Source: Candidatus Altimarinota bacterium
Lineage (GTDB): Bacteria > Patescibacteriota > Gracilibacteria > UBA4473
Reading direction: 5' to 3'
Length of the DNA: 40,542 bases
NCBI GenBank assembly: GCA_020629095.1
Contig: JAHDDZ010000001.1
Location: forward strand, 1 to 40,542
The position numbers and the translations under genes are program-made. A model generated the notes under the pieces. The model saw only the letters and a list, made by a program, of their open reading frames with translations, did not search any database and was not told where the DNA came from. Below, piece after piece: positions 2,471 through 39,744 of the stretch; the stretch's first letter is position 1; each line of letters starts with the position of its first letter.

Positions 2471-2479
2471 TGATATAAT
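2471..2479 (+). promoter_or_regulatory. Extended -10 promoter (TGATATAAT) for the 2486 gene, in a leaderless configuration
   Basis: TGn-TATAAT spans 2471-2479. TATAAT ends at 2479 and the ATG is at 2486, leaving a 6-nt gap (agaaag). Confidence 0.5.
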
Positions 2480-2485
2480 AGAAAG

Positions 2486-3694
2486 ATGTATTTTTGGCGC
2501 ATTTTGGCCCTTGTTTTGTTTCTGTCTCCGCTTGTATATGCGGATGATCAAGCAGTGCCAGAAAATGATTGCCAAATTGACGCAAACCAAAAAGAGAAGA
2601 CAACGGGCATTGCCCAATATATTTCGAATATTGATACGGACACGTATTTGCAGGTTGAGGACAGTTCTGGCTATACTTCCACAGAATATATTGAGGATCT
2701 GAAAAGCAAAAATACTTCAATGGAAAGCCCATTTTTGCATACGCTCTCACTCAGCCTTGAAACCGCAAAGTCGGCGCTTGGGCTGACAGACATCAGTGGC
2801 GAAAGTGCGGCGCTGGTCGAAGAGGCGTTTTATAAACGAGAGGAGCAAGTATTATTGCGGCATGTGTTTCAGACAAAACCGCTTAGCGGAAACTGCCGTG
2901 TGCACTTCGTAACTGACGACATCCGCCGAGACGTAAAAGCGCGAATAAATGAAGCGTGTGTGCAATTGGCTTCATTTGCAGAAGATGCAGATCGGATTTT
3001 GGAAACGCCAAAATCGCCAGAATACTACGCCGGGGTTCGCTTTCAAACATGTAAAAATGAGCTGATAGTGCCGATTATTTCACAGCTTAAAAATATTATC
3101 GGAGGAGGAAATAGCTCGCTAGAGCAGAAATATGCTGAGCTGACAGATAAAGATTCAAGCTGGCAGACTATCCAAAAAGATCTGTCAGAAAAGCGAAAAG
3201 AGTGGAGAACCGCGCAGGAGATTGGTGACACTGAAGATGTGGAGCGGATTCAAGAAGAAATAGAGGCACTGGAGGATGAGTTAGAGCAAATTACGATTGC
3301 AGTAGAAAGTCGGCTGGAGCTCTATAAATCATATGTGCAGGTGCTGGAAGAAAGCGCAACCGCGAGCAATGTGCAGTTGAGTGGCAGCCAAACGGGCACA
3401 TTTGATGTGTGCGTGCTGTCTATTGGCGGAGAGTGCACACGAAATGTGTGGGGAGATGGCGAAAATAGCCTGTTTACAAAGATAATTCGAGGGGCGATAA
3501 GTGTAGTTGGCACCCTGGCGGTTGTTGTCCTTATCATTGCTGGCTACTACTTGCTGCTTAGTCGCGGTGACGAGTCAATGCAAGCAACCGGAAAGGGGAT
3601 GATATTAAACGTGGTGTTGGGGTTGGCAGTCGTGTTCCTCAGCTATGTGCTGGTGCAGGCGGTCATCTCGTTTCTCTTTAGCCTTGGCGGATGA
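2486..3694 (+). CDS. Secreted coiled-coil protein with a C-terminal VirB2/TrbC-like two-helix pilin hairpin
   Basis: The N-terminal signal peptide is MYFWRILALVLFLSPLVYA/DD. A central acidic coiled coil reads DVERIQEEIEALEDELEQI. The C-terminus has two TM helices separated by a short polar loop (GAISVVGTLAVVVLIIAGYYLLLSRGDESMQATGKGMILNVVLGLAVVFLSYVLVQAV). This resembles the T4SS-pilin-like domain common in CPR proteins. Confidence 0.6.
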   Translation: MYFWRILALVLFLSPLVYADDQAVPENDCQIDANQKEKTTGIAQYISNIDTDTYLQVEDSSGYTSTEYIEDLKSKNTSMESPFLHTLSLSLETAKSALGLTDISGESAALVEEAFYKREEQVLLRHVFQTKPLSGNCRVHFVTDDIRRDVKARINEACVQLASFAEDADRILETPKSPEYYAGVRFQTCKNELIVPIISQLKNIIGGGNSSLEQKYAELTDKDSSWQTIQKDLSEKRKEWRTAQEIGDTEDVERIQEEIEALEDELEQITIAVESRLELYKSYVQVLEESATASNVQLSGSQTGTFDVCVLSIGGECTRNVWGDGENSLFTKIIRGAISVVGTLAVVVLIIAGYYLLLSRGDESMQATGKGMILNVVLGLAVVFLSYVLVQAVISFLFSLGG

Positions 3695-6129
3695 TGAGAA
3701 AAGTATTATTAGCTTTTGCGTTGTGCTTGTTGCCGACTTTTGCCCATGGGTTGGTGGTGCAAACTGGCACGTGGGAGAATAATAGGTGGGAAAGAAGCAC
3801 GGAGGATTTATTGCCAGGGGATGTGTTTTACATCCTCATAAATGAAAAGGAAAGTGATGAGATTTTGATAGATTCGAGTGGAGGATTGGTCTTGAAAAAA
3901 GAAGGAGCAAAAGTTGATTTTGACCCCCAAAAAACAATTATTGCCGCAGAGAACTGGAGAGAGCTAGCTGCAGATAAAGACCCAGATGCAAAAAATATTG
4001 TGCTAGAGGCAAAAGTTGGAACGGACATACGAAACACAAAAGAGGAATATCAGCTGCTGATTCCGTATCTTTTAAAAGATGGAGACACCACAAAAACACG
4101 CACAGCAAATGTAACAATCAAGGTTGGGGCGCCGAGTGCGCGGATTGTGAAATCAATCTCGCGGCCGCTTGACCAGCCCAATCGATTTACCGCTGAGCTG
4201 TCTTCTATTCCGCCAAATGTTTTAAGCAATGATGGATTTATTCCTGTTTTTGAGTGGGAATATCGTGAAAATGGAACAGAGAATTGGAGTGCGATATCGC
4301 CTGTACCACAGTGTGATAATGACACAAGCAGTAAAGTAAAGTGCTCTATCGTAATTACGCCAAGTGAAGTGAGTGCCCCGGGGTTCATTTTTGGTGTGGT
4401 TTATGACATACGGGTTACGGTCAAGGGGGTTGTGCCTGGTGATGAACTCGTTGCCACAACAGAGGCTGATTTTCCATCTGGAAATAACCTGCGGGTTATC
4501 ATCAGTCAGCCAAAAGGGCAGGATGAAAAGTGGGTTGGAAATGAAGGAATTGAGGAGAAATATACGTTTGCAGCAACGCCAAATGGATCGCTAAATGCTT
4601 ATGCAAACGCGGGACACTATGGCCTGTGGGTGCTGCGAGAGGAGGCAACTGGGGCGGATATTTCATCGGTTCCAACAGGCTCAACGGCGCAATACACAGT
4701 TGACCAGCGAAAGATAACGCCCGAAACGGCGCACACATTTCCGGGCGACCCACTACAGAAATGGCTTCAGATGAATGGAATAGAGGCCATGCAGGCGGGG
4801 CGATATGCAGTTGATTTCTATGTACTGCAGAAGGTAACCAGTGATGCGCATGATAATACCCCAGAAAACAAACGCCGTACTTTTCAGTCAAATGGAGACA
4901 CCGTGTATCTCCGACAAATAGAGCGAGATACGCTGACATTTACGGTTGTTAATCCAGACCTGAAAGTGAAGATAAATGGGTTAGGGCCGCATTCAATATT
5001 GCTTCCGTATGAAGAAGTTTTAGATCTTTCGGTTGAGCTGGATGGTATCGACGAGGCGTTGGTTGGGGAGATTGAGTGGAGGGCGGGGGCAGAAGAGGCT
5101 TTTGATCCTATAGGATATGTTGATTTACTAACAGCCAAAACAAAGCCAAATAGCCAAATAAGGCCTTTTCAGAAATATATTTTTGAGGCAACAATGATTT
5201 TAACAGATGGAAGTAGAACCACTGGTTTTGCCGAATTTGAAACCCAAGCAGATTGCGATGACCCTCAAGCGCAGGCACAATATCCAAATGAGTGTTTTGG
5301 GACAGGAAGTGGCCTGACTGGGCGCAAAGGCGAATTGCTGCACCGGGGGCAGTGCGTGCCACCAGAAAGCGTAAACTCGAGTGCGATTGGGTGGTATGAG
5401 AATGGCGCCGCGATGGCACTACCGATTCCGCCCTTGGTAGAAGGGACAGATGGTAAAGAGCTGCACTGGTGTTTTTGCTATGAGCGGCCAGTGGTAAATG
5501 AATTTGGGGAGGCATTAAAACGCCTTGAGTGGTATCAGACCGTGTTGAAAGAATCAGCCAATGGGGACAGCCTGGTTACTGCCAAGCGGGTTAATTATTG
5601 CGTGCCGCTGCAGGACTGCTTGGGCGACGTGTGTGCTATTTCAGGAGATAATGGATTTGACCTTTTTAGTAACTCTATACGAACTGTGTATCGATATGGC
5701 GCGTTTATAATTGGTTCAATTGTAGTTCTTATTTTGGTATGGAGTGGCATTCAGATGATGCTAGGCGGCGCAAACAGCGCACTCTATGAAGATGCCAAAA
5801 TGCGCATCTTGCAGGCGCTTTTAAGCATGGGATTGCTTTTTAGCAGCGCCATGATACTCCAAGCTGTAAATCCTTACTTCTTTCGGTCAGGTGAGGTTGA
5901 CGTAGCCGATAGTGATGCCGACGGTCTGCCAGACTGGTGGGAGAGAGAACATCGACTTGACCCATTTGACCCACAAGACTCGGGCTTTTCACAATCAAAA
6001 CAGTTGGAGGCCTGTAATGCACTGACCCCAGGAAATGGCGGGGACATTGATCTGGACGGAGATGGGGTTTGTAATTATCTCGAATATGTGCGAGGGACGG
6101 ATCCGCAATATGCAGAAGTCACAAACTAG
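3691..6129 (+). CDS. Large secreted surface protein with a Cys-rich region, a pilin-like TM hairpin and C-terminal thrombospondin-type-3 Ca-binding repeats
   Basis: Its ATG overlaps the upstream stop (ATGA at 3691-3694). The signal peptide is MMRKVLLAFALCLLPTFAHG. About 640 aa are predicted to be extracellular. The hairpin reads GAFIIGSIVVLILVWSGIQMMLGGANSALYEDAKMRILQALLSMGLLFSSAMILQAV. It is followed by DSDADGLPDWWE...DPFDPQDS and DIDLDGDGVCNYLEYVRGTDP. Confidence 0.6.
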   Translation: MMRKVLLAFALCLLPTFAHGLVVQTGTWENNRWERSTEDLLPGDVFYILINEKESDEILIDSSGGLVLKKEGAKVDFDPQKTIIAAENWRELAADKDPDAKNIVLEAKVGTDIRNTKEEYQLLIPYLLKDGDTTKTRTANVTIKVGAPSARIVKSISRPLDQPNRFTAELSSIPPNVLSNDGFIPVFEWEYRENGTENWSAISPVPQCDNDTSSKVKCSIVITPSEVSAPGFIFGVVYDIRVTVKGVVPGDELVATTEADFPSGNNLRVIISQPKGQDEKWVGNEGIEEKYTFAATPNGSLNAYANAGHYGLWVLREEATGADISSVPTGSTAQYTVDQRKITPETAHTFPGDPLQKWLQMNGIEAMQAGRYAVDFYVLQKVTSDAHDNTPENKRRTFQSNGDTVYLRQIERDTLTFTVVNPDLKVKINGLGPHSILLPYEEVLDLSVELDGIDEALVGEIEWRAGAEEAFDPIGYVDLLTAKTKPNSQIRPFQKYIFEATMILTDGSRTTGFAEFETQADCDDPQAQAQYPNECFGTGSGLTGRKGELLHRGQCVPPESVNSSAIGWYENGAAMALPIPPLVEGTDGKELHWCFCYERPVVNEFGEALKRLEWYQTVLKESANGDSLVTAKRVNYCVPLQDCLGDVCAISGDNGFDLFSNSIRTVYRYGAFIIGSIVVLILVWSGIQMMLGGANSALYEDAKMRILQALLSMGLLFSSAMILQAVNPYFFRSGEVDVADSDADGLPDWWEREHRLDPFDPQDSGFSQSKQLEACNALTPGNGGDIDLDGDGVCNYLEYVRGTDPQYAEVTN

Positions 6130-6165: not shown

Positions 6166-6193
6166 TTGACAGTTTTTTCTGTTCGCCTAGCAT
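6166..6193 (+). promoter_or_regulatory. Candidate promoter for tuf
   Basis: TTGACA (6166-6171), a 16-nt spacer, then TAGCAT (6188-6193). The -10 lies 29 nt upstream of the ATG at 6223. Confidence 0.45.
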
Positions 6194-8605: not shown

Positions 8606-9649
8606 TTAGGCACGAAATTGGGCATGAGCACTTGCCAAATCATGGCTCGTAATGGCACATAAAAGCGATAATTCGGCACACAAAACGCCAGCTCCAATCA
8701 CCATTGCCAGCTCGTCTGCTGCTTTCCCAGTGCCATTTTTTTGAGTCAGCCCAATGGCCTGTAGCCACTTGTTTTGTGTTGGAAGCCTTGTTCCACCGCC
8801 CACTGTGCCGACCAGTATGCATGGCATTTCAATCGTTATTTTAATTCCAGTATCTGTCTGCTGCAGGATGGTCGTGCCAGTTGCGCCATCTGCTATGTGC
8901 GATGGGTCTTGACCAGTAGCAATGAAAACTCCGGCTAGGATATTTGCATGGTGCGCATTTTGGCCAATAGCCTTAGCCAGTCGTGAACCACTTTTGAGCT
9001 TAGCCTCAGAGACTATTAGCAGTTCCTTTGGGGTCGTTTTCAGTACCTCTGACAGCACTTTTATGCTGATCTCTGCACTTGTTTTTATCATGCGCCCACG
9101 GCCGCTTGTGGCATTTCGCAGGCTGGCTTTTTTGTCACTGCACAGGTTTCCGCTCGTCGCAATCAACGTGCCTCCCCATTCTGGGACCAGCAGCTCATCA
9201 CAGATTCGTTTTGCGCTAATTGTAGCCATATTCATGCCCATCGCATCGGCCGTGTCAAACTTCATTTCAACGTGCACAAATTCATCATCTGTTAGTACTT
9301 TTGCCCCGAGCCATTGTGTGTGTAAGCTTGTTTGTTTGATGCATTTTTGAACTGCATCTGCATTTTCTCTAAACCAATTTTCATACCATTCTTGAGACTT
9401 TTTATTTTTAATTTTAAATACTGGTGCACGTGTAATTCCAACTCGTTGTATAGATGAAATAGCCCCACCACAAAGGCTAATTGCTTTTGCGCCGCGGTTG
9501 GCAGATGCAACTAAACAGGCCTCTGTGGTCGCGATCGGCAGAGCATATTTGTTCCCATTTACTTGCATTTCTTTGACCAGCCCAACGGGCAGCTCAACCA
9601 CACCAGATATATTTTCGCAGTTTTGTTCGTATGCGCTCAAATCGCTCAT
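8606..9649 (-). CDS. Class I-type HMG-CoA reductase, minimal catalytic domain
   Basis: Motifs seen: ENISGVVELPVG, TTEACLVAS, DAMGMNM, GTVGGGT and a C-terminal His (SAHAQF). I chose the ATG at 9649 because it forms an ATGA overlap with the upstream stop. An alternative ATG lies at 9676. Confidence 0.88.
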   Translation of the reverse strand: MSDLSAYEQNCENISGVVELPVGLVKEMQVNGNKYALPIATTEACLVASANRGAKAISLCGGAISSIQRVGITRAPVFKIKNKKSQEWYENWFRENADAVQKCIKQTSLHTQWLGAKVLTDDEFVHVEMKFDTADAMGMNMATISAKRICDELLVPEWGGTLIATSGNLCSDKKASLRNATSGRGRMIKTSAEISIKVLSEVLKTTPKELLIVSEAKLKSGSRLAKAIGQNAHHANILAGVFIATGQDPSHIADGATGTTILQQTDTGIKITIEMPCILVGTVGGGTRLPTQNKWLQAIGLTQKNGTGKAADELAMVIGAGVLCAELSLLCAITSHDLASAHAQFRA

Positions 9650-10263
9650 GCTGGCATTATACGCGTCGGCACGCAATTGTCACCCGCAAGCCACTTTTGC
9701 AGCACATTTGGTACCCCGTGAGAGATGTGCACAATGGCCCCCATGGCGGCGCAAGATCTTGCTGCAGCCACCTTTGCAGCGATTCCGCCAGTAGCATCAT
9801 GATTTTTTCTTGCAAAAGAAATGTTATTTTGCAGTTCTGCAATTGGCTTCTTTTCAGTATCAAATAAGCATGCATCGCTTAAAAAAAGAACCCGCTGCGG
9901 CTGAAGCCGTTTGCACAGATGTACCATAACTGCGTCTGATCCAGTTACCTCTTTGGGCTCAATTACCCCACGAGTGAGTTGTCCAGTGGCTGATTTGTCA
10001 TATCGCACAGAGGGTAAATCAAGACCGCATTTTGCGGCTGTTTGCTGAATTTTGCGAGTTAGCTCCACCATATTTTTGTGGCCGACTTCTCTATCATTTT
10101 GCAGCAAAGGCGGGTGCCCCCAGCTACCACCTCCATGCAGAATTATTCCCTTGAAATTACTTGCCGCCAGAACCATAAAAATCCCTTCTAACGCCGCTTC
10201 GTCGTAACTTTTTTCAACCATTTTATCACTAAAAATACTGCCTCCAATTTTAATAATATCCAT
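9646..10263 (-). CDS. ipk: Isopentenyl phosphate kinase (amino-acid-kinase fold)
   Basis: Motifs seen: IKIGGSIFSDK, ILHGGGSWGHP (the IPK His motif), LFLSDACLFD and DATGGIAAKV. The ATG at 10263 overlaps the upstream TGA by 1 nt (TGATG). An alternative TTG lies at 10266. Confidence 0.78.
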   Translation of the reverse strand: MDIIKIGGSIFSDKMVEKSYDEAALEGIFMVLAASNFKGIILHGGGSWGHPPLLQNDREVGHKNMVELTRKIQQTAAKCGLDLPSVRYDKSATGQLTRGVIEPKEVTGSDAVMVHLCKRLQPQRVLFLSDACLFDTEKKPIAELQNNISFARKNHDATGGIAAKVAAARSCAAMGAIVHISHGVPNVLQKWLAGDNCVPTRIMPA

Positions 10264-11243
10264 CAAAAAAGGTGCTGATTTGTTGCAGTTGCTCCCTTTC
10301 CAATTGGCGAGCTGATAATTTTTTCTATACCATCTATTTTGGCTATCGCACTTTCAACAATTTTTTTGTTTTTTACAGGTGTTAAAACGTGCACCGTGCT
10401 GCCAGCATCAAGCGTCCAAGTCACTGAAATGCCATCTTTTTGTAGGTCATAAACAGCGGCAATGATGGCTCCTGTTGTTTGATTTGTATAATTTAAAGAC
10501 GGATTACCGCTCATCATAACGGCATGGAGGGCAAGTGCCTGAGATTCTGAAATGGCGAGAAAAGCACTAAAATCTTGTTGAGAAATAGCGTGCTGAAGTT
10601 GCCTTATTTGTGCCTCACTCATTGTGATTCGGGCTTTTTGCAACGGGCTTTTTGCAGCAAAATCATGCCCTTCGAGCGAGCCAATCTGTTTTGGTTTTGT
10701 GTCTGAAACGGCAATAATATCAACCAAATTCCATTCATTTTCACCTGCTATTTTTTCTGTTTTTCCAGTTTGGAAAAGTGCCCCCCAGCCATCATGAGCA
10801 CTTCTTAGGGCAGAACCACTTCCGGCGATATGCATTAGGTCAATATGCTGCATTGGAGCGATCAGAATAGCGCTGCAAGCCGCGTACCATAGGGCACAAA
10901 CCCCAGACGCAGAAGACGCAATTCCGGCACTCATGGGGAAGTTAAGCTGGCTTTTGGCTTTCCATTTATGGGTTATTTCAGCAGTTTTAGCGATGGCATT
11001 TACCATATCAAAAATCATTTGTGCACGTGCTGAACTAGTTGGGTCAAGCTGTACCTCTTCTCCTGTTTCGAGCTCTATTGTTAATGTATTCTCATCGTAG
11101 TCAGCATCAAAACAAATTGTTGTATGCGCGGTGCAGGAGGCTAAATTCATGCTCAAACTCGGGCTGGCCGGTAGTCGGCCCTGCGCATGGCCCCAGTGCT
11201 TAATGATAGCAATATTGGCCGGAGCAATTGCGCTAGCTTTCAT
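10263..11243 (-). CDS. Mevalonate diphosphate/phosphate decarboxylase homolog (GHMP family)
   Basis: APANIAIIKHWG corresponds to APVNIA.IKYWGK in known enzymes. NFPMSAGIASSASG, GSGSALRS and TLDAGST also match. I chose the ATG at 11243 (ATGA overlap with the idi stop); the track ORF starts at 11273. Confidence 0.85.
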   Translation of the reverse strand: MKASAIAPANIAIIKHWGHAQGRLPASPSLSMNLASCTAHTTICFDADYDENTLTIELETGEEVQLDPTSSARAQMIFDMVNAIAKTAEITHKWKAKSQLNFPMSAGIASSASGVCALWYAACSAILIAPMQHIDLMHIAGSGSALRSAHDGWGALFQTGKTEKIAGENEWNLVDIIAVSDTKPKQIGSLEGHDFAAKSPLQKARITMSEAQIRQLQHAISQQDFSAFLAISESQALALHAVMMSGNPSLNYTNQTTGAIIAAVYDLQKDGISVTWTLDAGSTVHVLTPVKNKKIVESAIAKIDGIEKIISSPIGKGATATNQHLF

Positions 11244-11800
11244 ACTTTTTGCTGATTTATATTTTCTTTCCACCAGTCGCTAAAGGCTTTATTGTGGTGC
11301 AATAAAAGTACTTCCTCTCGGCACCATGGGCTCAGGTGACTCCATTCTATCATCCTATTTTGCAGCAAATTGTTCCAATTTACCCACTGCGTTTTTGCCA
11401 CTTCGTCTGCATTTGGCTTGGGGGCATCTGACAAAGTTCCAACCCAAATTGGGCACCATTCGTGCTCCATGACTTCATCCATAGTGGCCCTATAACTATA
11501 GTTTGGCACCATCTCAATTATGCTTTTTGGTGAAACCCCAAGCTCAAATTGAGCTCTTCGCGTAACGGCATCAGTCATTTTTTCACCAGGTAGCGGGTGC
11601 CCACAAACTGAGTTGCTCCATACGCCAGGCCACGTTTTCTTGCTATGAGATCGTTGTTGCAGCAATAGTTTGCCGTCTGGAGAAAATAAAAAGCAAGAGA
11701 AAGCTTTATGCAGAGGCGTTTTTGAGCTATGAACAGTGGCTTTTAAGGTTGTGCCAATTTCATTCCAATTAGCATCGAGCAGGATGACTTCTTCGTTCAT
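11240..11800 (-). CDS. idi: Type 1 isopentenyl-diphosphate delta-isomerase (Nudix fold)
   Basis: Motifs seen: LHKAFSCFLF, LLLQQRSHSKKTWPGVWSNSVCGHP and EHEWCPIW. Length is 186 aa. Confidence 0.9.
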   Translation of the reverse strand: MNEEVILLDANWNEIGTTLKATVHSSKTPLHKAFSCFLFSPDGKLLLQQRSHSKKTWPGVWSNSVCGHPLPGEKMTDAVTRRAQFELGVSPKSIIEMVPNYSYRATMDEVMEHEWCPIWVGTLSDAPKPNADEVAKTQWVNWNNLLQNRMIEWSHLSPWCREEVLLLHHNKAFSDWWKENINQQKV

Positions 11801-12654
11801 AGGCTGATTATACTCGATAGGTGTGCCACGGCCAGTGGCCCAAAAAAGTACCAGAAGGCAATCATTCCCATAAGGGTGTTTATGACGGGAAGTCTCTTGT
11901 AGACAGCAAAAAGAGTGGAATTACTTTTCCAGCTTGTAAAAATAATAGTTGTATAGACTCCCATTCCAAGGATTCCTGCGAGTAGAGAATATTGCAGAGT
12001 AATCGCAAAAGTCGTCATCCATAAGGCCCACACATACATAAGCGTTCTGTGCTTGCCAAGAGTAGTAGCTGTAGTAGAAAGGCCCGCTTTCGTATCAGCG
12101 GGGATGTCTGGAATAGCACTATATGCATGCATTCCCACCATCATCGACCAAATTCCCACAAATGCAACCCAGTCTGACGGTTCAGTTGAAATAGACCAAT
12201 ATCCTATGAGTGCTGGGCAAGTATACAACACATTGCTAACCGAGTCAAGAAATGGCCGTGCCTTCAGTCGAACTGGCGGAAGAGAGTAGCTGAGTGACAA
12301 AATAAGCCAGCCCGCCCATGCCACCTGCGCAGCTATTGGAGTAATCAGCAGTAGTGGTACAACTGGCAGATGTAAGAGTAAGATCCACCACACCAATGGG
12401 CGCGTTTTACTGCTTTTGTGGCGGTTTTCATATCCATCTTTTTTTGCATTCAGTGCGTCTGTGTCTCGATCACTTATGTCATTTATGCCATATACTAGTA
12501 GATTTGCCGGCAGGGTAAAATATGCCAACCAAAGCCAAAAAGTGGGCGTCCAGAAGTCACCAACAGACTCTGCTCCGGCCGCCCAGCCTACGGCAAATGT
12601 CCCGGCTAAATACCCCCAAAACCGTGGCCGACTGGTCCTCAAAATCCATTTCAT
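11797..12654 (-). CDS. UbiA-family aromatic/polyprenyl prenyltransferase, possibly lycopene-elongase-like
   Basis: The protein is polytopic. It starts with SRPRFWGYLAG. The first Asp-rich motif is YGINDISDRDTDALNAKK and the second is AIPDIPADTKAGLSTTATTLG. It sits directly after crtB and crtI. The family call is firm; the substrate call is an inference. Confidence 0.75.
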   Translation of the reverse strand: MKWILRTSRPRFWGYLAGTFAVGWAAGAESVGDFWTPTFWLWLAYFTLPANLLVYGINDISDRDTDALNAKKDGYENRHKSSKTRPLVWWILLLHLPVVPLLLITPIAAQVAWAGWLILSLSYSLPPVRLKARPFLDSVSNVLYTCPALIGYWSISTEPSDWVAFVGIWSMMVGMHAYSAIPDIPADTKAGLSTTATTLGKHRTLMYVWALWMTTFAITLQYSLLAGILGMGVYTTIIFTSWKSNSTLFAVYKRLPVINTLMGMIAFWYFFGPLAVAHLSSIISL

Positions 12655-14168
12655 GAGAGATCAGTTAATGATGTGAGCATACTACCAGATCGGTCATTTA
12701 TGATGTATTTATAGGCCAATTGACTGCTGAGTAAGCTAATTGGCACTCCGATGCCGGGGTTTGTGCCAGCCCCTGTATACAGCAAATTTTCCACTTTTTT
12801 GCTTTTGGCAGGGGGTCTAAAACATGCCGTTTGCCTCAGTGTATGGGCCAATCCAAGCGCACTCCCACCATATGCGTTATATCTGTCTTTGAAGTCGCTG
12901 ATACTAAAACTTCGCTGAAACACAATTCGCTCGCGGAGGTTTTTTATCGGAAACTTTTCCTCCATATGCGCCAAAACGCGGTCGATTTCACGTGCCCTGG
13001 TGGCATCATCATCGAGTAATTTGGGACTTATTGGCACCAGTACAAATAGGTTTTCATGTCCATCTGGGGCAGTTTCTGGCTCAGTCTTGCTCGGGGCACA
13101 TACATACAAACTTGGCTCAGTTGGATATTTTGGGTTGATAAAAAGTTCATCAAAACCGCCTTTCCAGTCATCTGCAAAAATGAGATTATGGTGGACCAAA
13201 TGATCGCATTTCCCCTTTACCCCAAGATATAAAATGAGTCCACTGGGCGCCCATTTGCGCTTTTTCCAATACGGTTTTGAGTAGGTTCTATGCCGCTTTT
13301 TAGTTATCAGTTGTGTTTCTGTGAAGGCATAATCGGCATTGCTAATGACGATATCAGCATGCATTTCAGTTCCGTTTTGCAGCCGCACGCCCACCGCCTT
13401 TTTGTCTTCTATTAAAATCTCCGCCACTTCTGTGTTCAGCCGTATGTCTGCTCCGTGTTTTTTTGCAATGCCCGCAAACGACTTCATGACCGCGTGCAGA
13501 CCCCCTTTAGGGTACCACACCCCCATGTTGAAATCAATATGACTCATGAGGCTATAGATCGCAGGAGCATCATATGGTGAGGTGCCCAAGAATACCATTG
13601 CGTACTGCAAAATCCGCTGTATATGAGAGTTTTTTGTATATTTTTCTACGTGCTTTGCGAAGCTCGAAAAGACCCCCAGCTCCATTCCCATGCGGGCTGT
13701 GCGCAGGTTTATCAGATCAAAAATACTCTCATAATTCTTGCACATAAAATCACTCTTACTGATTTCATATTTCGTTTTTGCCTTCTCTAAGTACGCCAAA
13801 AGTCGTGGTGTGACACCTTTTTCAAATGCCTCAAAAGTAGGCAAATCTTTCTTCAAGTCACTAAAAATCGTAGTTGGGGGCGTCAGATCATTATTCCCCC
13901 ACCATATTTTATAGGCGGGATCAAGCTGTGTCAGCTCCAGCTGTTCCTCTACCTTTTCACCTAGCAGTGCATAAAAATCTGCAAATAAATCTGGCATTAA
14001 ATACCAACTGGGTCCCATATCAAAACGAAACCCATCAGCCTCGAAAAAACCTCCACGACCGCCTACGCACTCATTTTTTTCCACCACTGTCACCTGCGCC
14101 CCAGATCTTGCCAGTAAGGCTGCAGCTCCAAGCCCTCCGATGCCACTGCCGATAATTATTGTTTTCAT
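12651..14168 (-). CDS. crtI: Phytoene (or diapophytoene) desaturase, CrtI family
   Basis: The FAD motif reads IIIGSGIGGLGAAALLARSG..VVEKN..GGR. The C-terminus has YTGAGTNPGIGVP. I chose the ATG at 14168 (MKTIIIGSG), which forms an ATGA overlap with the crtB stop. The track ORF starts at 14198. Confidence 0.85.
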   Translation of the reverse strand: MKTIIIGSGIGGLGAAALLARSGAQVTVVEKNECVGGRGGFFEADGFRFDMGPSWYLMPDLFADFYALLGEKVEEQLELTQLDPAYKIWWGNNDLTPPTTIFSDLKKDLPTFEAFEKGVTPRLLAYLEKAKTKYEISKSDFMCKNYESIFDLINLRTARMGMELGVFSSFAKHVEKYTKNSHIQRILQYAMVFLGTSPYDAPAIYSLMSHIDFNMGVWYPKGGLHAVMKSFAGIAKKHGADIRLNTEVAEILIEDKKAVGVRLQNGTEMHADIVISNADYAFTETQLITKKRHRTYSKPYWKKRKWAPSGLILYLGVKGKCDHLVHHNLIFADDWKGGFDELFINPKYPTEPSLYVCAPSKTEPETAPDGHENLFVLVPISPKLLDDDATRAREIDRVLAHMEEKFPIKNLRERIVFQRSFSISDFKDRYNAYGGSALGLAHTLRQTACFRPPAKSKKVENLLYTGAGTNPGIGVPISLLSSQLAYKYIINDRSGSMLTSLTDLS

Positions 14169-15013
14169 GAAAAAAGGGCTAATCGGAGTTTTTGCCACTT
14201 GCTAAGCGAATAATTGCTGTGGTGCACATGGTACTCAGACTGCTCAATTTTGTCTAAATATGCCGAATAAAGCTGGCTCGCGGCTCGAACAGCCCACCGC
14301 CCACGAGGGTGCAATTTCTCTATTGCAGGGGCTGCTTCCGCATATAATTTTCTGGCACGTGCAGCCTGGAATTGCATAAAATCTGCCCATCCTTTTGGAT
14401 ATTCTTTTTTTGCAATATGTGCCTCCGTTATACCCCATTTTGCCATTTCGTCAGCCGGTAAATAAATTCGCCCGAGGTCAAAATAATCCTCTGAAATATC
14501 TCGTAAAAAATTTGTGAGTTGCATGGCATATCCCAGTTTTGCAGCCGCATTAAGTGTTTCTTTATCTGGAGGAGATCTATCTGCCATGCCAATGGCGTAG
14601 GTCATGAGCACGCCCACCGCGGCAGCAGATCCGTCCATATATGTACACAGATCGCTATAATTTGCATATCGATTTTTATGGGTGTCCATGCGCATTGCGG
14701 CCAAAAAAGAACTAGCGTGTTTTGGTGGCACTTTTAGCTCTTGGTGCAAACCTGCAGCTGCCAGGAGCACGGGGTGCGTTGTTGAGTCCACTCCTATTTG
14801 CGCCTTTTCCCATGCAGCCTCCCAGGCGCTCAGGGACTGTTTTTTGTTTTGTATTTCAGGGCTATCCACTATGTCATCTGGCAATCGAAAAAAGGCATAG
14901 ATGATGTAGGTACGGTCACGAAGCCACTTTGGAAATAGACGCGTTGCACTTGCGTAGGTTGGTCCACGATTGTGCATTATGGCTTTACAAAAGGCAATAT
15001 CATGCTTTTTCAT
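14165..15013 (-). CDS. crtB: Phytoene/squalene synthase family enzyme (CrtB/CrtM type)
   Basis: Asp-rich motifs FFRLPDDIVDS and NFLRDISEDY are present, plus YMDGSAAAVG. Length is 282 aa. Confidence 0.85.
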   Translation of the reverse strand: MKKHDIAFCKAIMHNRGPTYASATRLFPKWLRDRTYIIYAFFRLPDDIVDSPEIQNKKQSLSAWEAAWEKAQIGVDSTTHPVLLAAAGLHQELKVPPKHASSFLAAMRMDTHKNRYANYSDLCTYMDGSAAAVGVLMTYAIGMADRSPPDKETLNAAAKLGYAMQLTNFLRDISEDYFDLGRIYLPADEMAKWGITEAHIAKKEYPKGWADFMQFQAARARKLYAEAAPAIEKLHPRGRWAVRAASQLYSAYLDKIEQSEYHVHHSNYSLSKWQKLRLALFS

Positions 15014-15948
15014 GCGGTTCGATTCATTAAAAAGTGAAGCAAATCAAAGAGCGAGTTATGCTGTTTTTCACTCAGAGGGCAATTCTTTAGAAGTGTTAAA
15101 GCTGTTTCATGGTGCTTTTGTGCTACTTCTTGGGTGGCGGCATATGCGCCTATTTCGGCATAAAATGCATGAATTTGCTCTATGTTTTTTGTATCTAAAA
15201 TGGCTTTGTGCTTCTCTGGTTTTTGTATTTGTGCATAGGCTGTATAGTGCGTTGCCTTTCCCTCCATGATATCATTAAGCACAGGTTTTCCCACTTCCTC
15301 ACTGTCAGACTGGGTGTCTAGCAGGTCATCCATCAACTGAAATGCCGTTCCCACAGCAGTGCCCCATGCCTCTGCCCAAGCCAGTTGTTGATTCGTTGTT
15401 TTAGTGGCCATAAGGCCCAACTGTAAAGGGCGTGTCACAGAGTATGTTGCTGTCTTTAAATAGGTTTTTTGCAGCACATTCTCCATGCTGCTTTGCGGTG
15501 TTAATTGGGCATCGAGCACTTGTCCAGAGAGGACTTCGCGCTGAAGTGCGCTCCATGTTTTTTGCGCAGCTTCATGGGGGTTTGTTTTTGAAAAATACTC
15601 ATGAGAGAGCATCAGCAGCCAGTCACCAGACAGCAAAGCAAGGTCATTTCCAACCTCTGTATGAACCGTTTTGCTTCCTCGCCGCAGGGGGGAATTGTCC
15701 ATGATATCATCATGTACTAAGGCAAATCCATGCAACAGCTCAAGTGCAATTTGTAGGTTATTTCTAGAAAAATCATCTGCGCCAATGGCCGCAAGATATG
15801 GACGAATACGTTTCCCTCCACGGAGAACTAAATCAGCTGCAGGGGCAAATGCAACCTTGGCAGAGTCATGCGGTAATGCCAAAAGGCTATCAGAAAGGGC
15901 ATCTTTAAGGGTTTTTTGAAAGATATTTGCGTATGGAATTATTTTCAT
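15010..15948 (-). CDS. Polyprenyl diphosphate synthase (GGPP/FPP synthase type)
   Basis: The first Asp-rich motif is LVHDDIMDNSPLRRG and the second is FQLMDDLLD. I chose the ATG at 15948 (MKIIPYANIF, 312 aa) because it forms an ATGA overlap with the preceding small gene. The track ORF extends to 16104. Confidence 0.85.
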   Translation of the reverse strand: MKIIPYANIFQKTLKDALSDSLLALPHDSAKVAFAPAADLVLRGGKRIRPYLAAIGADDFSRNNLQIALELLHGFALVHDDIMDNSPLRRGSKTVHTEVGNDLALLSGDWLLMLSHEYFSKTNPHEAAQKTWSALQREVLSGQVLDAQLTPQSSMENVLQKTYLKTATYSVTRPLQLGLMATKTTNQQLAWAEAWGTAVGTAFQLMDDLLDTQSDSEEVGKPVLNDIMEGKATHYTAYAQIQKPEKHKAILDTKNIEQIHAFYAEIGAYAATQEVAQKHHETALTLLKNCPLSEKQHNSLFDLLHFLMNRTA

Positions 15949-16205
15949 AAAAGTGGCATCAAGGCAGGGGCATGGACTATTCTTCCATCTGGCAGTATAT
16001 TTTTTCGCATCATAATAATCTTCACTCTTTGTCCTTCCGCGCATGTATATCCTGGCATGATTGGAAAAATATGCTTTTTGGCTTCCAATTGAGTCAATGC
16101 CCAAGTACCACTATTTGAGGTCGTCACATGCAAAATGGTTCCACTCTTGCCTATAAACGCTTTATCTTTTTGCCACAAACGGTTTTGCTGCGTAGGGGAT
16201 ATCAT
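15945..16205 (-). CDS. Small DUF35/OB-fold acyl-CoA-associated protein homolog (86 aa, no zinc ribbon)
   Basis: This is the C-terminal 86 aa of track ORF 15945..16364, starting at the ATG at 16205. That ATG forms an ATGA overlap with the thiolase stop. The sequence is MISPTQQNRLWQKDKAFIGKSGTILHVTTSNSGTWALTQLEAKKHIFPIMPGYTCAEGQRVKIIMMRKNILPDGRIVHAPALMPLL. It has the G.G.v...T / v.L.e / iG..V pattern of the DUF35 OB domain. Its position after HMGCS and thiolase matches the archaeal gene order. Confidence 0.5.
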   Translation of the reverse strand: MISPTQQNRLWQKDKAFIGKSGTILHVTTSNSGTWALTQLEAKKHIFPIMPGYTCAEGQRVKIIMMRKNILPDGRIVHAPALMPLL

Positions 16206-17308
16206 GCTTTTTTGACTATGTGAATAACAACGGTTCCGCCGGTTCCCCCCACATTGTGTGCCAGACCTGTTTTGACTCGGTCTGTTTGGTTTCTGGCAAG
16301 GGTTATAAGCTGTCGCACGCCGGTTGCGCCAACCGGGTGCCCAAAAGCTTTTAACCCTCCCCATGGGTTTATAATTATTTCAGATTCTCTTTGTAGCATT
16401 GTCTCTAAAAGTGAATGCGCTTGCCCTCTTTTTGCTAGCCCGAGGTCCTCCACTGCAAGAGAAAGTGATATAGAAAAACAGTCATGCAAGCAGTATTGGT
16501 CAATATCAGAAATGCTTATTTCAGCCTGATTTAGGGCATTAGCGAGAACCATGCTTGTTGTCAAAATCTGTGTTAAATCTGCCCGATTTGAAAGCCCTGG
16601 AGGACCACTTTTGGTGGCACTGGCAGTGATTTGTGTGGAGGACTTTTTGGCACTCAGCACAAGGGCGGCGGCACCATCTGTGATGGGGGCTGCGTGTAGC
16701 AGTCGCATGGGGCTGCTCACCATCTGGCTTGATTCAATTTGTTTATTTGAGAAGTTTTTATGAAACTGCGCCAAAGTATTTTCAGTTGCCTGGCGGTGCA
16801 TCAGTTGCATTCCAGGGCTAAAAACTGTTGCATCGTGCCCATGCTTTTTCATATAGGCCTGTGCGATGAGGGCATAGAGACCACCAAAAGTGATGCCGGT
16901 TGAGCTCTCCGCCTCAGTTGTCGCTCCCATCAGCGCTTGGTTGACGGTTGCACTAGAGTGATCTGTCATTTTTTCTGTGCCGATGACAAGAGCATTTGTA
17001 GCAAATCCAGCAAAGACATCCTTCCATCCTAAATGCACAGCAATACCACCAGAAGCGCAAGCGGCCTCCGTTCTGATACAAGCTGCAGAAATGCCCAACT
17101 TTTCTGCAATAATAGCACCTAGGTGTCCTTGCTCATCAAGGGCAATTCCGAGCATATTTCCAACATAGAGCACATCAATATCAGCGGGACTAATACCACT
17201 TTCAGAGAGCGCTTCAGCTCCCGCGAACACCCCCAAGTCAACCGCGGAAAGGCCATCATGCCGCCCAAATTTTGTGCATCCAGTTCCGTTTATAAAGACA
17301 GAATTCAT
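16202..17308 (-). CDS. Archaeal-type acetyl-CoA acetyltransferase (thiolase)
   Basis: The start reads INGTGCTKFGRH. The catalytic Cys context is TEAACASGG. The C-terminus has HPVGATG and NVGGTGG. Length is 368 aa. Confidence 0.9.
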   Translation of the reverse strand: MNSVFINGTGCTKFGRHDGLSAVDLGVFAGAEALSESGISPADIDVLYVGNMLGIALDEQGHLGAIIAEKLGISAACIRTEAACASGGIAVHLGWKDVFAGFATNALVIGTEKMTDHSSATVNQALMGATTEAESSTGITFGGLYALIAQAYMKKHGHDATVFSPGMQLMHRQATENTLAQFHKNFSNKQIESSQMVSSPMRLLHAAPITDGAAALVLSAKKSSTQITASATKSGPPGLSNRADLTQILTTSMVLANALNQAEISISDIDQYCLHDCFSISLSLAVEDLGLAKRGQAHSLLETMLQRESEIIINPWGGLKAFGHPVGATGVRQLITLARNQTDRVKTGLAHNVGGTGGTVVIHIVKKA

Positions 17309-18306
17309 GAAAGTGGGCGGTTTATTTCATTATATGCTTGTGCGTCAAGCACCTGCATGGCGGCTATCTGTTCTCGAATAGGCATTGTTTTACACCCACT
17401 TTCAGCTTTTTTTGTGACCACAAATGCATCAGCCCCAGCCCCAGAGCCGTAACTGCAGCAAAGGATTTTGTCTCCAATTTTTGCTTCATCAAGGGCAGCG
17501 CAAAGCCCCAAAGGTATACAGGCTGCATAGGTATTTCCAATCAGCGGAACCAGCCACCCAGCAGCTAATTGTGCTCTTGTTATCACCATTTTTTGTGCTA
17601 CTTTGAGGGGGAGTTTTGCGTTTGGCTGGTGCAAGATTACATGCGCATAATCTGCTATTTTGCTTTGTGTTTCATTCAGCAATAACTGCAGTGCGCCGCA
17701 CACAACCTCTATGTAGGTCTCATTGCTATGCGCCCCAGCATGGATTGGATGATCTGCCTTGTTACTGCGCCAAAAGTCTAGTCTATGAACTGAATAGCTC
17801 TGCCAAGATTCTATGGTGGCAATAGGCGTTTTACCCACTAAAAAAGCGGCAGCACCTGCCCCAGCCGTGTAGTGCAGTGGGTCCCCAACTTTGCCAGTTG
17901 CACAGTCCGAGGCAACCGCAATTCCACTTTGGCTGCGGCCTGTCGCTACATGGCACAGGGCCATGTCGAGTGCGACGGTTCCGGCTTTGCAGGCAAATTC
18001 AACATCAGCCGTTTGGCAGTTTGTATCCATGCCAATTCCATCGACAATCATACTGCTAGTTGGGTTTACTGCATAGAGGGGCGTTTCGCTCCCGAAAAAA
18101 AGACATCCGGCTTTCTGTGTCGTTAGGCTACTTGCGGCTCGCAACCCAAGTGTCAAACTGTCAGTCGCCGTGCCTGGAATAGATTTTTGTGAAACACCCA
18201 GCCCAGCGTACAGCGTTTTTGGCTGCCCGGCTAACTCCGCAAGCAGTTCTTGTTGTGCACAAAAACCAGGAATCGCCACCCCATATTCTTGTATTCCAAT
18301 TGCCAT
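17305..18306 (-). CDS. Archaeal-type HMG-CoA synthase
   Basis: VEFACKAGT holds the catalytic Cys. LHQPN and IGNTYAAC are also present. Length is 333 aa. Confidence 0.88.
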   Translation of the reverse strand: MAIGIQEYGVAIPGFCAQQELLAELAGQPKTLYAGLGVSQKSIPGTATDSLTLGLRAASSLTTQKAGCLFFGSETPLYAVNPTSSMIVDGIGMDTNCQTADVEFACKAGTVALDMALCHVATGRSQSGIAVASDCATGKVGDPLHYTAGAGAAAFLVGKTPIATIESWQSYSVHRLDFWRSNKADHPIHAGAHSNETYIEVVCGALQLLLNETQSKIADYAHVILHQPNAKLPLKVAQKMVITRAQLAAGWLVPLIGNTYAACIPLGLCAALDEAKIGDKILCCSYGSGAGADAFVVTKKAESGCKTMPIREQIAAMQVLDAQAYNEINRPLS

Positions 18307-18886: not shown

Positions 18887-19821
18887 CTAATGTACGAATT
18901 TTGACTGGTGACTGCCTTTTTCAAATAAAAGAGCGTATTGACGTTTTTCGTACTGCTTTTGCCAAAAAGTACCCAGAGGGAGATATTAGTGAAATATATG
19001 CAGGAGCGGACGCCGTTGACATGAAAAATGCACTTGCCACCGAAAGTCTTTTTAGCACAAAGCGGATTATCTTCTTTTTTGATTGCATTAATGCAGATAA
19101 CCTCGAGCAGCTTATTCCGCAAATAGAATTGTTGCATGGCAATGAGGACAAGACGCTTATAATCACTTTGCCGCGCCCAGATAAGCGAACAAAGACGTAT
19201 AAAACATTCATAAAAGGATCATTTTTTGTAGAGGATTTTCCACAACTAGATGGCATAAATCTATCGAGTTGGTGCGTGAAAAAAAGTGAAAAGCAGATGG
19301 ACACGGCCACAGCAAATGCGCTCATTGCGTATTGTGGAACAGATTTATGGAAGCTCTCGACTGAGATAGAAAAACTGGTTATGAGTGAAAAGATAATTAC
19401 AAAAGAGCTGATTCACGAAATGGCAATTCCGAGTCCATCAGCAGAAATTTGGGGCATGATGGAGGCGTTTAGCGCCCAAAACAAAGGGCGTGCTATGAGT
19501 GAATATGGGAAGCTGCGAGCTGCTGGGCACGAGCCGTTTTATGTCATGGCGATGCTGATGCGTGAGCTGCGGATTTTATTGCAACTGCAGACAGCAAAGG
19601 CGTTTCAGGTGCCGACAAAGAGTTTTGGAATAAACCGATTTGTAGCCAAAAAAACAAGCCCCCATGCGAGTAAATGGAACAGCGCGCGATTGCGAAAGGC
19701 GTTTGCGCGGCTGCAAGAAATTGATACGGGAATAAAAACAGGTGGACTGCAGATTCCAACAGGCGACGCCGCCGAGCTTGATTTAGCGCTTGAGACATTT
19801 ATGATCTCTGTATGTCAGTAG
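18880..19821 (+). CDS. holA: DNA polymerase III delta subunit
   Basis: Length is 313 aa. The N-terminal region has the delta-subunit layout (ESLFSTKRIIFF, then an LWKL.TEIEKL helical domain). This call rests on weaker motifs than the others. Confidence 0.75.
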   Translation: MATNVRILTGDCLFQIKERIDVFRTAFAKKYPEGDISEIYAGADAVDMKNALATESLFSTKRIIFFFDCINADNLEQLIPQIELLHGNEDKTLIITLPRPDKRTKTYKTFIKGSFFVEDFPQLDGINLSSWCVKKSEKQMDTATANALIAYCGTDLWKLSTEIEKLVMSEKIITKELIHEMAIPSPSAEIWGMMEAFSAQNKGRAMSEYGKLRAAGHEPFYVMAMLMRELRILLQLQTAKAFQVPTKSFGINRFVAKKTSPHASKWNSARLRKAFARLQEIDTGIKTGGLQIPTGDAAELDLALETFMISVCQ

Positions 19822-38062: not shown

Positions 38063-38335
38063 ATGAGTGAAAAGACACAGCCAGTTGAGCAGTTTCTGAG
38101 CTATACTATTTCAAATTTACTCGATACTGGAAGTGTGCACGAAGTTAAAGTGGAGGAAGATGAAATAGGTGTCATTGCTCGCATTTATGTAGCAGAAGAT
38201 CAAATGGGAAAATTAATTGGGCGAAATGGACAAACTATCAGCGCCTTGCGGTTGCTGGTGCGGTCAATCGGGGCACGGATTGGCACAAAAGCGACGCTGA
38301 AGGTCGTCGAGCCAACTGATAAGACAGAAGTATGA
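38063..38335 (+). CDS. KH-domain RNA-binding protein (YlqC/UPF0109 family)
   Basis: The sequence IYVAEDQMGKLIGRNGQTISALRLLV contains the GxxG KH motif. Its position after rpsP is the conserved one. Confidence 0.85.
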   Translation: MSEKTQPVEQFLSYTISNLLDTGSVHEVKVEEDEIGVIARIYVAEDQMGKLIGRNGQTISALRLLVRSIGARIGTKATLKVVEPTDKTEV

Positions 38336-38835
38336 TACCTTTTATTCAATCAGCTTTTGCGCAATCTGGACAAGGAGGAGCGTTGCCAAGCACTGGACAG
38401 GGCGGCACAACGACTGGCGGAAGCATTTTTGATAGTGCATCAACGAGTTCTGGCCTTGGAGTAGATGCGCCGACGCTCATCAGCAGTAGCCCGATCTTAG
38501 GAGAACTCAGCTTTAGTGAACTAATTCAGATGATAATTGTATATGCCTTTATTATCGCAGCGGCACTTAGTGCTATTTTTATTTTTATTGGAGGAATCAA
38601 TTTTATTCTCTCTGGCGGGGCAGATGACAAGATTAAGCAAGCTGTGAATACTATTCGATACAGCATTATTGGACTAATTGTAACTATTTTGAGCTTTACA
38701 TTTGTGACTATTATTGGGCGTATTTTTGGCATAGACTTTCTTGGCTATGTATCATATGACAGCATCCGAGATAGTATAAACCAGCTAACACAGTCGGTTC
38801 AGGTTGAAAATCCATCTATCTTTTCTCCTCAATAA
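38332..38835 (+). CDS. Small VirB2/TrbC-like pilin-hairpin membrane protein
   Basis: Its ATG forms an ATGA overlap with the KH gene stop. A Gly/Ser/Thr-rich N-terminal region is followed by two TM helices with a short polar loop (IIVYAFIIAAALSAIFIFIGGINFILSGGADDKIKQAVNTIRYSIIGLIVTILSFTFVTIIG). Confidence 0.55.
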   Translation: MIPFIQSAFAQSGQGGALPSTGQGGTTTGGSIFDSASTSSGLGVDAPTLISSSPILGELSFSELIQMIIVYAFIIAAALSAIFIFIGGINFILSGGADDKIKQAVNTIRYSIIGLIVTILSFTFVTIIGRIFGIDFLGYVSYDSIRDSINQLTQSVQVENPSIFSPQ

Positions 38836-38840
38836 ATCAC

Positions 38841-39473: not shown

Positions 39474-39476
39474 AGT
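39448..39476 (+). promoter_or_regulatory. Candidate promoter for rpmG, embedded in the 3' end of comF
   Basis: TTGACA (39448-39453), a 17-nt spacer, then TAGAGT (39471-39476). The -10 lies 22 nt upstream of the ATG at 39499. Confidence 0.5.
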
Positions 39477-39498
39477 ACGATCGAATAAAATTATAGGT

Positions 39499-39708: not shown

Positions 39709-39710
39709 TT

Positions 39711-39738
39711 TTGCTTCTGTTTGGTGTTTGCGTATAGT
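39711..39738 (+). promoter_or_regulatory. Candidate promoter for the AI-2E transporter gene, in a leaderless configuration
   Basis: TTGCTT (39711-39716), a 16-nt spacer, then TATAGT (39733-39738). Six nt (gactat) follow before the ATG at 39745. Confidence 0.45.
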
Positions 39739-39744
39739 GACTAT

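Follow-up and report, generated by a model that had tools for sequence, protein, structure and literature searches.

Two adjacent genes near one end of a bacterial contig encode large proteins with a signal-peptide-like start and a pilin-like hairpin. They raise the question of whether such proteins are subunits of a pilus-like assembly or free-standing surface proteins that use the hairpin as an anchor. The genes, here called P1 (402 amino acids, aa) and P2 (812 aa), lie in a window of 40,542 nt, the whole stretch of DNA analysed (Candidatus Altimarinota bacterium, assembly GCA_020629095.1, contig JAHDDZ010000001.1, positions 1 to 40,542). The host is a Peregrinibacteria-like ultrasmall bacterium, and the mevalonate pathway encoded in the window is consistent with that lineage (PMC4736985). 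A first-pass annotation made from the letters alone had described two genes joined by an ATGA stop/start overlap, and both open reading frames (ORFs) and the overlap were reproduced at exactly the same coordinates (Table 1). The NCBI annotation starts P2 one codon downstream, giving 811 aa and leaving a 1-nt overlap with P1. Both proteins follow a common plan: the N-terminus is signal-peptide-like, a long region without hydrophobic character comes next, and two hydrophobic helices form a hairpin. Their hairpin modules are 29% identical. The reading we favour, at a probability of about 55%, is that P1 and P2 are a translationally coupled, Sec-exported pair of PF18895 (T4SS_pilin) proteins, built on a conserved assembly module and displaying variable, strain-specific outer domains.

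The membership of the hairpins of P1, P2 and a third, small protein of the window (P3) in PF18895 is solid. In keeping with the first-pass annotation, which had likened the hairpins to pilins of type IV secretion systems (T4SS), P1 scored 29.7 bits over aa 333-393, P3 32.7 bits and the isolated P2 module 27.2 bits, all above the gathering cutoff of 26.6 bits; full-length P2 scored 22.7 bits. Every one of 66 aligned relatives matched PF18895, the P2 module was 40-57% identical to proteins precomputed as members of this family, and NCBI names one relative 'pilin'. A hidden Markov model (HMM) of the module as found in this lineage was then run on the 41 ORFs of the window. P2 (127 bits, E 5.6e-40), P1 (50 bits, E 5.3e-16) and P3 (48.8 bits, E 1.2e-15) were recovered, whilst all remaining ORFs, including those with other membrane hairpins, gave E > 0.7. 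The shared two-helix module of P1 and P2 and its presence in the third gene, both noted in the first pass, were confirmed, with hydropathy placing the helices at aa 329-362 and 367-402 of P1 and at aa 665-695 and 705-724 of P2. Two-helix hairpins are simple, and Foldseek cannot discriminate between them, so unrelated hydrophobic segments in unrelated membrane proteins or over-called ORFs might be mistaken for a family. As the module HMM picks only P1, P2 and P3 among 41 ORFs, a chance origin of the hairpins is excluded, and the 833 database relatives of P2 and the conserved gene pairing described below likewise refute it.

The module has the signature G..G(V/I)DL..NY(I/V)..IY(K/R)(W/Y)GA.IIGI..VL.IV.SG.QI..GG....AK.RI.QA..SL.LLF.SA.IL.TINPxFF, in which a set of small and polar residues is near-invariant (P2 numbering: G675, S685-G686, Q688, G693, K703, R705, N727-P728, F730-F731). 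An AlphaFold2 model computed with the 66-sequence alignment (predicted local distance difference test, pLDDT, 79) consisted of a beta-hairpin followed by helices of 37 and 31 residues. In P2 these correspond to aa 636-652, 655-691 and 696-726, with a GG..AK.R loop between the helices and NPYFF ending the second. Module identity to relatives was 35-55%, compared with 36-41% for methionyl-tRNA synthetase (MetRS) between the window and the metagenome-assembled genomes (MAGs) of the same relatives. Family members are designed alike: an MKK-type Sec leader (MKK-hydrophobic-AxA in almost all) is followed by 15-750 aa of variable sequence and by the module, which mostly forms the very C-terminus. Polypeptides with two to three fused modules also occur (P0098; L006:1344-2123, L021:10274-11068, L022:10245-11306 and L025:4680-5768).

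We next scanned genomes with the closest modules as queries. The 28 loci recovered, all from Peribacteria, Peregrinibacteria or 'Gracilibacteria' MAGs, held 100 module genes in arrays of 2-5 (median 168 aa, maximum 490 aa), so that paralogues of the module are expanded in relatives. Two arrangements were found. The first is a tight pair, in which a gene for 250-490 aa is followed by one for 135-243 aa at gaps of -7 to +23 nt, with a 1-nt overlap in four of the related pairs. It lies in a housekeeping context beside the genes for dihydroorotase and aspartate carbamoyltransferase, usually behind a conserved protein of 648-699 aa that has no Pfam or NCBIfam match. P1 matched the first genes of these pairs and the P2 module the second genes. 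The closest relatives of P1 were first genes from Peribacteria and Gracilibacteria MAGs (E 1e-20 to 1e-10), which share with it the signature ..GT.AV..LI....Y..(I/L).S.GDE.....GK....VQ. Because each member matches its own position in the pair, the cassette is a conserved heteropair of Peribacteria, Peregrinibacteria and Gracilibacteria and not a local oddity. The second member is of roughly 150-240 aa in the relatives compared with 812 aa here.

The conserved protein upstream of the related pairs (for example L001:6089-8053; also in L003, L004, L008-L011, L027, L029 and L030) is predicted to have one transmembrane (TM) helix, around aa 296-315, and its C-terminal half looks repeat-like. Its gene abuts the first pilin gene in L029 and often precedes genes for a NuoE-like 2Fe-2S protein and an FNR-like oxidoreductase. 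The window has no homologue of it. We considered whether it might be a divergent VirB4 and rejected this, given its lack of a Walker A motif and of any Pfam or NCBIfam match and its single predicted TM helix.

A hairpin of pilin ancestry could also serve as a bitopic membrane anchor, in which case P1 and P2 would be stand-alone surface proteins forming no filament and needing no T4SS. The absence of T4SS genes near the pair and its relatives, dealt with below, would fit such an anchor, as would the size of the P2 ectodomain: an N-terminal region of at least 500 aa is found in just 2 of 139 relatives. Peribacteria are moreover known for large extracellular Cys-rich proteins (PMC4736985). Generic anchors, however, are not kept at the identity level of a tRNA synthetase with Gly, Gln, Lys, Arg and NPxFF residues almost unchanged, and the conserved two-gene pairing and the fusion of two to three modules indicate contacts between modules. 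We thus regard a role as anchor only as rather unlikely. The MetRS-level conservation, the near-invariant residues, the basic loop, the heteropair and the fused copies together argue for specific contacts of the module with other modules or with a machine, and side-by-side packing fits the fused copies better than simple anchoring does.

By contrast with the module, the outer domains have almost no detectable relatives. The first-pass annotation had judged both to be novel, and neither matched an enzyme family, any other Pfam family or a PDB entry. With the P1 ectodomain as query, phmmer found only P1 itself, both among the 151 family proteins retrieved and among the genes encoded at the 28 related loci; a word-index search with full-length P1 also returned only itself, and a PDB search with the ectodomain gave no significant match. 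For P2, an exhaustive phmmer search of 1.84 billion (1.84e9) representative proteins gave 833 matches. Among those listed, nearly all had their best stretches at aa ~630-735 or 733-812 (module identity 40-57%, E down to 1e-26) and a few reached back to aa ~513, leaving the first ~500 ectodomain residues (aa 21-~510) uncovered by the listed matches. A word-index search with full-length P2 found only itself, the ectodomain matched no Pfam family at E <= 1 and no PDB sequence, self-comparison showed no significant internal repeats, and tblastn found no match in plasmid and phage records.

Signal peptides had been proposed for both proteins, and hydrophobic leaders followed by AxA-like sites were found in each by a heuristic. 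The coiled coil proposed for P1 stood only in part. A heptad-compatible acidic helix does precede the module, but it covers just ~45 aa, its crude heptad score was equalled by 11 of 500 shuffled sequences, and coiled-coil-type Pfam and NCBIfam matches to aa 201-298 were at noise level. The Cys-rich block of P2 was confirmed, with eight Cys in aa 522-648 compared with two in aa 21-521; three of the eight (Cys637, Cys643 and Cys648) belong to the conserved beta-hairpin at the start of the module. Mature P2 has 12 Cys in total and mature P1 six, the latter including Cys309 and Cys317 of its module.

The hairpin had been taken as the C-terminus of both proteins, which was incorrect for P2, where an Asp-rich tail of 80 aa follows (aa 733-812). 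As the mark of a thrombospondin type 3 (TSP3) domain we took a score of at least 25 bits against TSP3_bac (PF18884) plus a Dx(D/N)xDGxxDxxE-type Ca-binding motif. The tail contains two TSP3-like Ca-binding motifs (DSDADGLPDWWE; DLDGDGVCNYLEY..GTDP) and scored 24.1 bits, just under the cutoff, and is here called TSP3-like. Proteins with TSP3 repeats were the strongest matches of P2 in the exhaustive search (E 2e-28), the top one (P0003) having 26 TSP3_bac repeats. Long relatives sometimes carry other recognisable domains after the hairpin: one (P0059) has a CAP domain, and two (P0004 and P0060) gave weak, sub-threshold TSP3-type matches after the module (E ~0.006-0.01). The other long family members had no recognisable ectodomain. 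Secreted-protein domains such as CAP in relatives would fit a hairpin that holds a catalytic or toxic ectodomain at the surface, be it a hydrolase of the cell wall or an effector that damages the host. Even with permissive thresholds, however, neither ectodomain matched a family in Pfam, NCBIfam or PDB, and no catalytic motif was recognised in them, making a tethered enzyme or toxin highly improbable.

The likeness of the module to VirB2/TrbC pilins, as claimed in the first pass, was borne out only partly. For profile-profile comparison we aligned seven annotated VirB2/TrbC genes of conjugative plasmids. A broad profile of 248 modules aligned with them co-linearly over 84 columns, the whole mature pilin (score 29.8, P 1.5e-4, probability 52%). 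Controls, comprising a reversed profile, 20 column-shuffled profiles, the V-ATPase c subunit encoded in the window and another membrane ORF, scored no higher than 17.4 (P >= 0.03). This profile similarity provides real but weak support for a relationship to VirB2/TrbC. Among the 66 relatives, 14 gave weak matches to TrbC/VirB2 (best E 3.2e-4) and six to DUF4134. We regard it as plausible that the module works like a VirB2-type pilin.

In the favoured reading, P1 and P2 would be exported by Sec and lose their leaders, and the hairpin would sit in the cytoplasmic membrane with both of its ends outside (N-out/C-out). This topology is suggested by the Sec leader, by the even Cys counts of the two mature proteins and by the extracellular-type domains around the hairpin. 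The variable N-terminal regions, and in P2 the Ca-binding TSP3-like tail, would then be extracellular at the cell surface. The module may pack with other modules, for example those of small pilins like P3, such that P1 and P2 become part of a VirB2-type assembly or sit at its base. The machine driving it would be encoded elsewhere and is most likely a dispersed T4SS of the Patescibacteria type. Its product would be a filament or a membrane-proximal oligomer showing the outer domains to another cell or surface, and P2 is probably an attachment protein displayed on the surface or on a pilus.

Several observations weigh against this assembly. The hairpins fall short of TrbC/VirB2 proper: against the gathering cutoff of 27.9 bits for PF04956, P1 scored 15.5 and P2 12.7 (15.9 as isolated module), at the same residues that match PF18895, and P3 had no match. 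A narrow module profile of 26 sequences was not significantly similar to VirB2 in hhalign (probability 1.2%, E 0.045). Foldseek found nothing significant for the module model in the PDB (best E 1.9), VirB2 of the T-pilus (8exh_A, 8cue_1A) appearing at E 5.9 and 21-24% identity among noise-level helical hairpins. An archaeal conjugative pilus (8dfu_0) gave a target-normalised TM-score of 0.60, a helical hairpin being too simple to discriminate, and a search of PDB sequences with the module profile gave nothing meaningful. The single-sequence AlphaFold2 model of P2 (pLDDT 33.7) was uninformative on its fold. A domain of ~65 kDa on each subunit may be hard to fit in a VirB2-type helical filament. 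To our knowledge, no filament of PF18895 proteins has been visualised so far. Finally, as the first pass had reported, the window contains no T4SS ATPase and no VirB6/8/9/10 gene, and no T4SS gene was found within 10 kb of 31 related places.

This last point has to be read against what is known of the phylum. In Patescibacteria, a catalogue of VirB2-like pilins with PF18895 spans 1948 assemblies and counts 441 arrays of 2-11 genes, and VirB4 was found in 2417 of 3035 assemblies, with T4SS genes dispersed in the class Gracilibacteria (Quinonero-Coronel et al. 2025, PMC12102498). Since only 1135 of the 1948 assemblies have a pilin near virB4 (PMC12102498), the absence of T4SS neighbours here is not unusual. 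In Ca. Southlakia epibionticum, a pilin series within SEML1_0006-0019 is essential and lies inside a T4SS cluster (Wang et al. 2023, PMC10633639). The view of the first pass that this is an uncharacterised kind of system does not hold: the PF18895 family and its arrays are already published, and P1/P2 are not a new system. The pilin work in Patescibacteria has been reviewed (PMC12857230), and PF18895 is the dominant domain of freshwater-specific structure clusters (10.1101/2025.04.23.650224). The part of the PMC12102498 supplement that was examined holds no Peregrinibacteria entries. In the searchable literature we did not find the Peregrinibacteria-like heteropair, arrays next to pilT, multi-module pilins, or pilins with homologue-free ectodomains of hundreds of residues and TSP3 or CAP domains after the hairpin.

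The second arrangement found in relatives points to other possible partners. Here, arrays of 2-5 module genes extend up to metG where the loci reach far enough. In eight loci (L007:7802-11607, L012, L013, L015, L016, L018, L022 and L024) the array starts -47 to +39 nt after pilT on the same strand, and a type IV pilus operon, encoding N-methyl pseudopilins, PilC and a GspM-like protein, follows behind metG. The ATPase upstream of these arrays was considered as a VirB11 and rejected, scoring 437 bits against pilT_fam (TIGR01420) compared with 52 bits against VirB11, and belongs to the PilT/PilU family. The only proteins of at least 500 aa with a Walker A motif near the arrays were FtsH and PilB. 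With pilT and a pseudopilin operon so close, no VirB4 near any array, and P3 adjoining comF in the window, VirB2-like modules might work with the type IV pilus and PilT machinery, or as a self-contained appendage, in place of a VirB4-dependent T4SS. The module nevertheless lacks the N-methylation (class III) leader required by prepilin peptidase and type IV pilus assembly: P1, P2 and P3 gave no match to PF07963 (N_methyl), and the leaders of P1 and P2 are Sec type I-like. A class III leader is short and basic, ends in Gly and precedes an N-methylated hydrophobic residue and Glu5; the pseudopilins beside the arrays of relatives do have this motif. Pairs of the P1/P2 type moreover lie in housekeeping rather than type IV pilus contexts, gene neighbourhood is weak evidence in small, compact genomes, and the Saccharibacteria arrays sit in a T4SS cluster (PMC10633639). 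A link to the type IV pilus in place of a T4SS is for these reasons distinctly unlikely. A broader conjecture, in our view unlikely, is that VirB2-like modules of Peregrinibacteria and Gracilibacteria form an appendage or display scaffold independent of the canonical VirB4 T4SS and tied to the type IV pilus and PilT, with unrelated, quickly replaced ectodomains, such as the ~600-aa one of P2 and its Ca-binding tail, exchanged on the conserved core for host or partner specificity. If true, this would parallel the outer domains of flagellin, on the chassis of a conjugative pilin.

The features of the pair and of P3 are collected in Table 1. An extended -10-like motif read from the sequence upstream of P1 could be a candidate promoter of the pair, and its spacing of 6 nt from the P1 start suggests a leaderless mRNA; a consensus promoter scan did not report it and gave no -35 match. 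A promoter-like site downstream of P2, a consensus match only, would set the pair apart as a unit of its own at the 3' side. A mobile-element origin was rejected: P2 found no counterpart in plasmids or phages by tblastn, and the window is uniform in composition and lacks tRNA genes.

Table 1. Features of the P1/P2 pair, its flanks and P3, in window coordinates.
Feature	Position (nt)	Strand	Residues	Basis or remark
Extended -10-like motif TGaTATAAT	2471..2479	+		ends 6 nt 5' of P1 ATG; read from sequence
P1, 'A1'-type pilin-family protein	2486..3694	+	402 aa	signal peptide, ~270-aa ectodomain, C-terminal PF18895 hairpin
P1 predicted Sec signal peptide	2486..2542	+	aa 1-19	hydrophobic segment, AxA-like site, cleavage between ...PLVYA and DD; heuristic
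P1 ectodomain	2543..3361	+	aa 20-292	four Cys
P1 acidic heptad-compatible helix	3221..3355	+	aa ~246-290	directly 5' of module; crude heptad score 0.82
P1 pilin module	3362..3691	+	aa 293-402	Cys309/Cys317 loop, then two hydrophobic helices
ATGA stop/start overlap of P1 and P2	3691..3694	+		P1 TGA 3692-3694, P2 ATG 3691-3693
P2, 'A2'-type pilin-family protein with oversized N-terminal ectodomain and TSP3-like C-terminal tail	3691..6129	+	812 aa	ORF, module HMM
P2 predicted Sec signal peptide	3691..3750	+	aa 1-20	hydrophobic aa 4-25, AxA-like site, cleavage between ...PTFAHG and L; heuristic
P2 ORFan ectodomain (~600 aa), acidic	3751..5577	+	aa 21-629	no homologue among 1.84e9 representative proteins, no internal repeats
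P2 Cys-rich block	5254..5634	+	aa 522, 535, 555, 594, 596, 637, 643, 648	eight Cys; sequence
P2 pilin module	5578..5886	+	aa 630-732	AlphaFold2 model, family signature, PF18895 on isolated module
P2 C-terminal tail, Asp-rich, TSP3-like	5887..6126	+	aa 733-812	two motifs and Cys775/Cys794 pair
Promoter-like TTGACA-16-TAGCAT	6166..6193	+		consensus match only; between P2 stop and probable EF-Tu ATG (6224)
P3, small pilin-family protein	38332..38835	+	167 aa	module aa 57-133 (nt 38500-38730)

P3 had no convincing signal peptide. Its gene lies in a string of rpsP, a KH-domain gene, P3 and a comF-like gene (window 38063-39473), overlapping the KH ORF by 4 nt and separated from comF by 5 nt; comF also occurs near T4SS loci in the class ABY1 (PMC12102498). 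In the last ~1 kb of the window (39473-40542) no ORF exceeds ~100 aa and neither a tRNA nor an Rfam match was found; a gene that continues beyond the contig end may lie there.

Elsewhere the window, which has no tRNA and no Rfam family, encodes GAPDH, EF-Tu, DnaJ, a mevalonate/carotenoid-type cluster, a prepilin peptidase, MetRS, two DUF4012 proteins, EF-G, a V-type ATPase operon, GlmS, rpsP and comF. At 705-1416 a TauE/SafE exporter is present as two overlapping ORFs (705-1046 and 949-1416, covering profile positions 1-97 and 92-237); the split reflects a frameshift, a pseudogene or an error in sequencing. The mevalonate cluster occupies 8606-18306, densely packed on the minus strand. From reading of the translations, it encodes HMG-CoA reductase, an isopentenyl-phosphate-kinase-like protein, diphosphomevalonate decarboxylase, IDI, thiolase and HMG-CoA synthase, with a UbiA prenyltransferase, a phytoene-desaturase-like protein, a phytoene/squalene synthase and a polyprenyl synthase. 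A prepilin peptidase (A24) gene and an ORF for a 130-aa multi-TM protein without family match (together 19812-20926) lie directly upstream of metG. We tried the latter (20534-20926) as a fourth pilin and rejected it (module HMM E 4.4). The DUF4012 paralogues (23609-25399 and 27549-29075; 596 and 508 aa, both with a TM segment at the N-terminus) flank the EF-G gene, and an O-antigen-ligase-like gene (Wzy_C) lies 5' of this group.

[quoted passage not shown] The locus shows that the pilin module can bear very large, lineage-unique extracellular domains and that a two-gene pair is kept across a class, in which pilin arrays lie away from VirB4 genes and often follow pilT directly. Should the module polymerise, proteins like P2 would become candidates for host-recognition subunits, through which the partner specificity of uncultivated episymbionts could be approached. 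Should it not, the family would exemplify a pilin turned into a general surface anchor. Either outcome would sharpen the reading of 'T4SS pilin' annotations in CPR genomes.

Among known systems, the published Patescibacteria arrays share with P1 and P2 the Pfam family, the Sec leader with two-helix hairpin, tandem divergent paralogues, a monoderm CPR host and the lack of a relaxase or coupling protein nearby. P1 and P2 differ from them in lying outside a T4SS cluster, in being 3-6 times the typical pilin length (median 168 aa in relatives), in the homologue-free ectodomain and TSP3-like tail of P2, and in coming from a Peregrinibacteria-like host rather than from Saccharibacteria. A second likeness is to the large, Cys-rich, strain-variable extracellular proteins of Peribacteria, for which an attachment role has been proposed (Anantharaman et al. 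2016, PMC4736985). These too come from a lineage with the mevalonate pathway and are large, exported, Cys-containing and homologue-free. The text of that paper speaks only of twitching motility, type II secretion and type IV pili, and mentions neither 'VirB4' nor 'type IV secretion' nor a VirB2-type pilin module; the link between these proteins and PF18895 is drawn here.

The VirB2/TrbC/TraA pilins (PF04956; T-pilus 8EXH, 8CUE) also have a leader, a short extracellular segment and two long helices joined by a short basic loop, and in the weakly supportive broad-profile comparison they align co-linearly with the module over the whole mature pilin. They differ in the sub-cutoff PF04956 scores and non-significant Foldseek matches given above. 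P1 and P2 show no evidence of cyclisation, and they have a monoderm host, large N-terminal domains and no virB operon. The Mbov_0395/MMCAP2_0565 proteins of mycoplasma integrative and conjugative elements (NF045849) are likewise small, two-helix and pilin-like, and come from wall-less or monoderm hosts. P1 and P3 matched the full 80-position model weakly (18.7 and 16.6 bits), far below the cutoff of 40. The genes here do not lie in the context of such an element, and P2 had no match in plasmid or phage collections.

In flagellins, with their D2/D3 outer domains, and in type IV pilins with large globular heads, a conserved core is combined with a hypervariable exposed domain. The fold and machinery of these proteins are unrelated to those of P1 and P2. 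The resemblance, by analogy and not by membership, is that in each case a strongly conserved part for polymerisation or anchoring is joined to an unconstrained part exposed to the outside.

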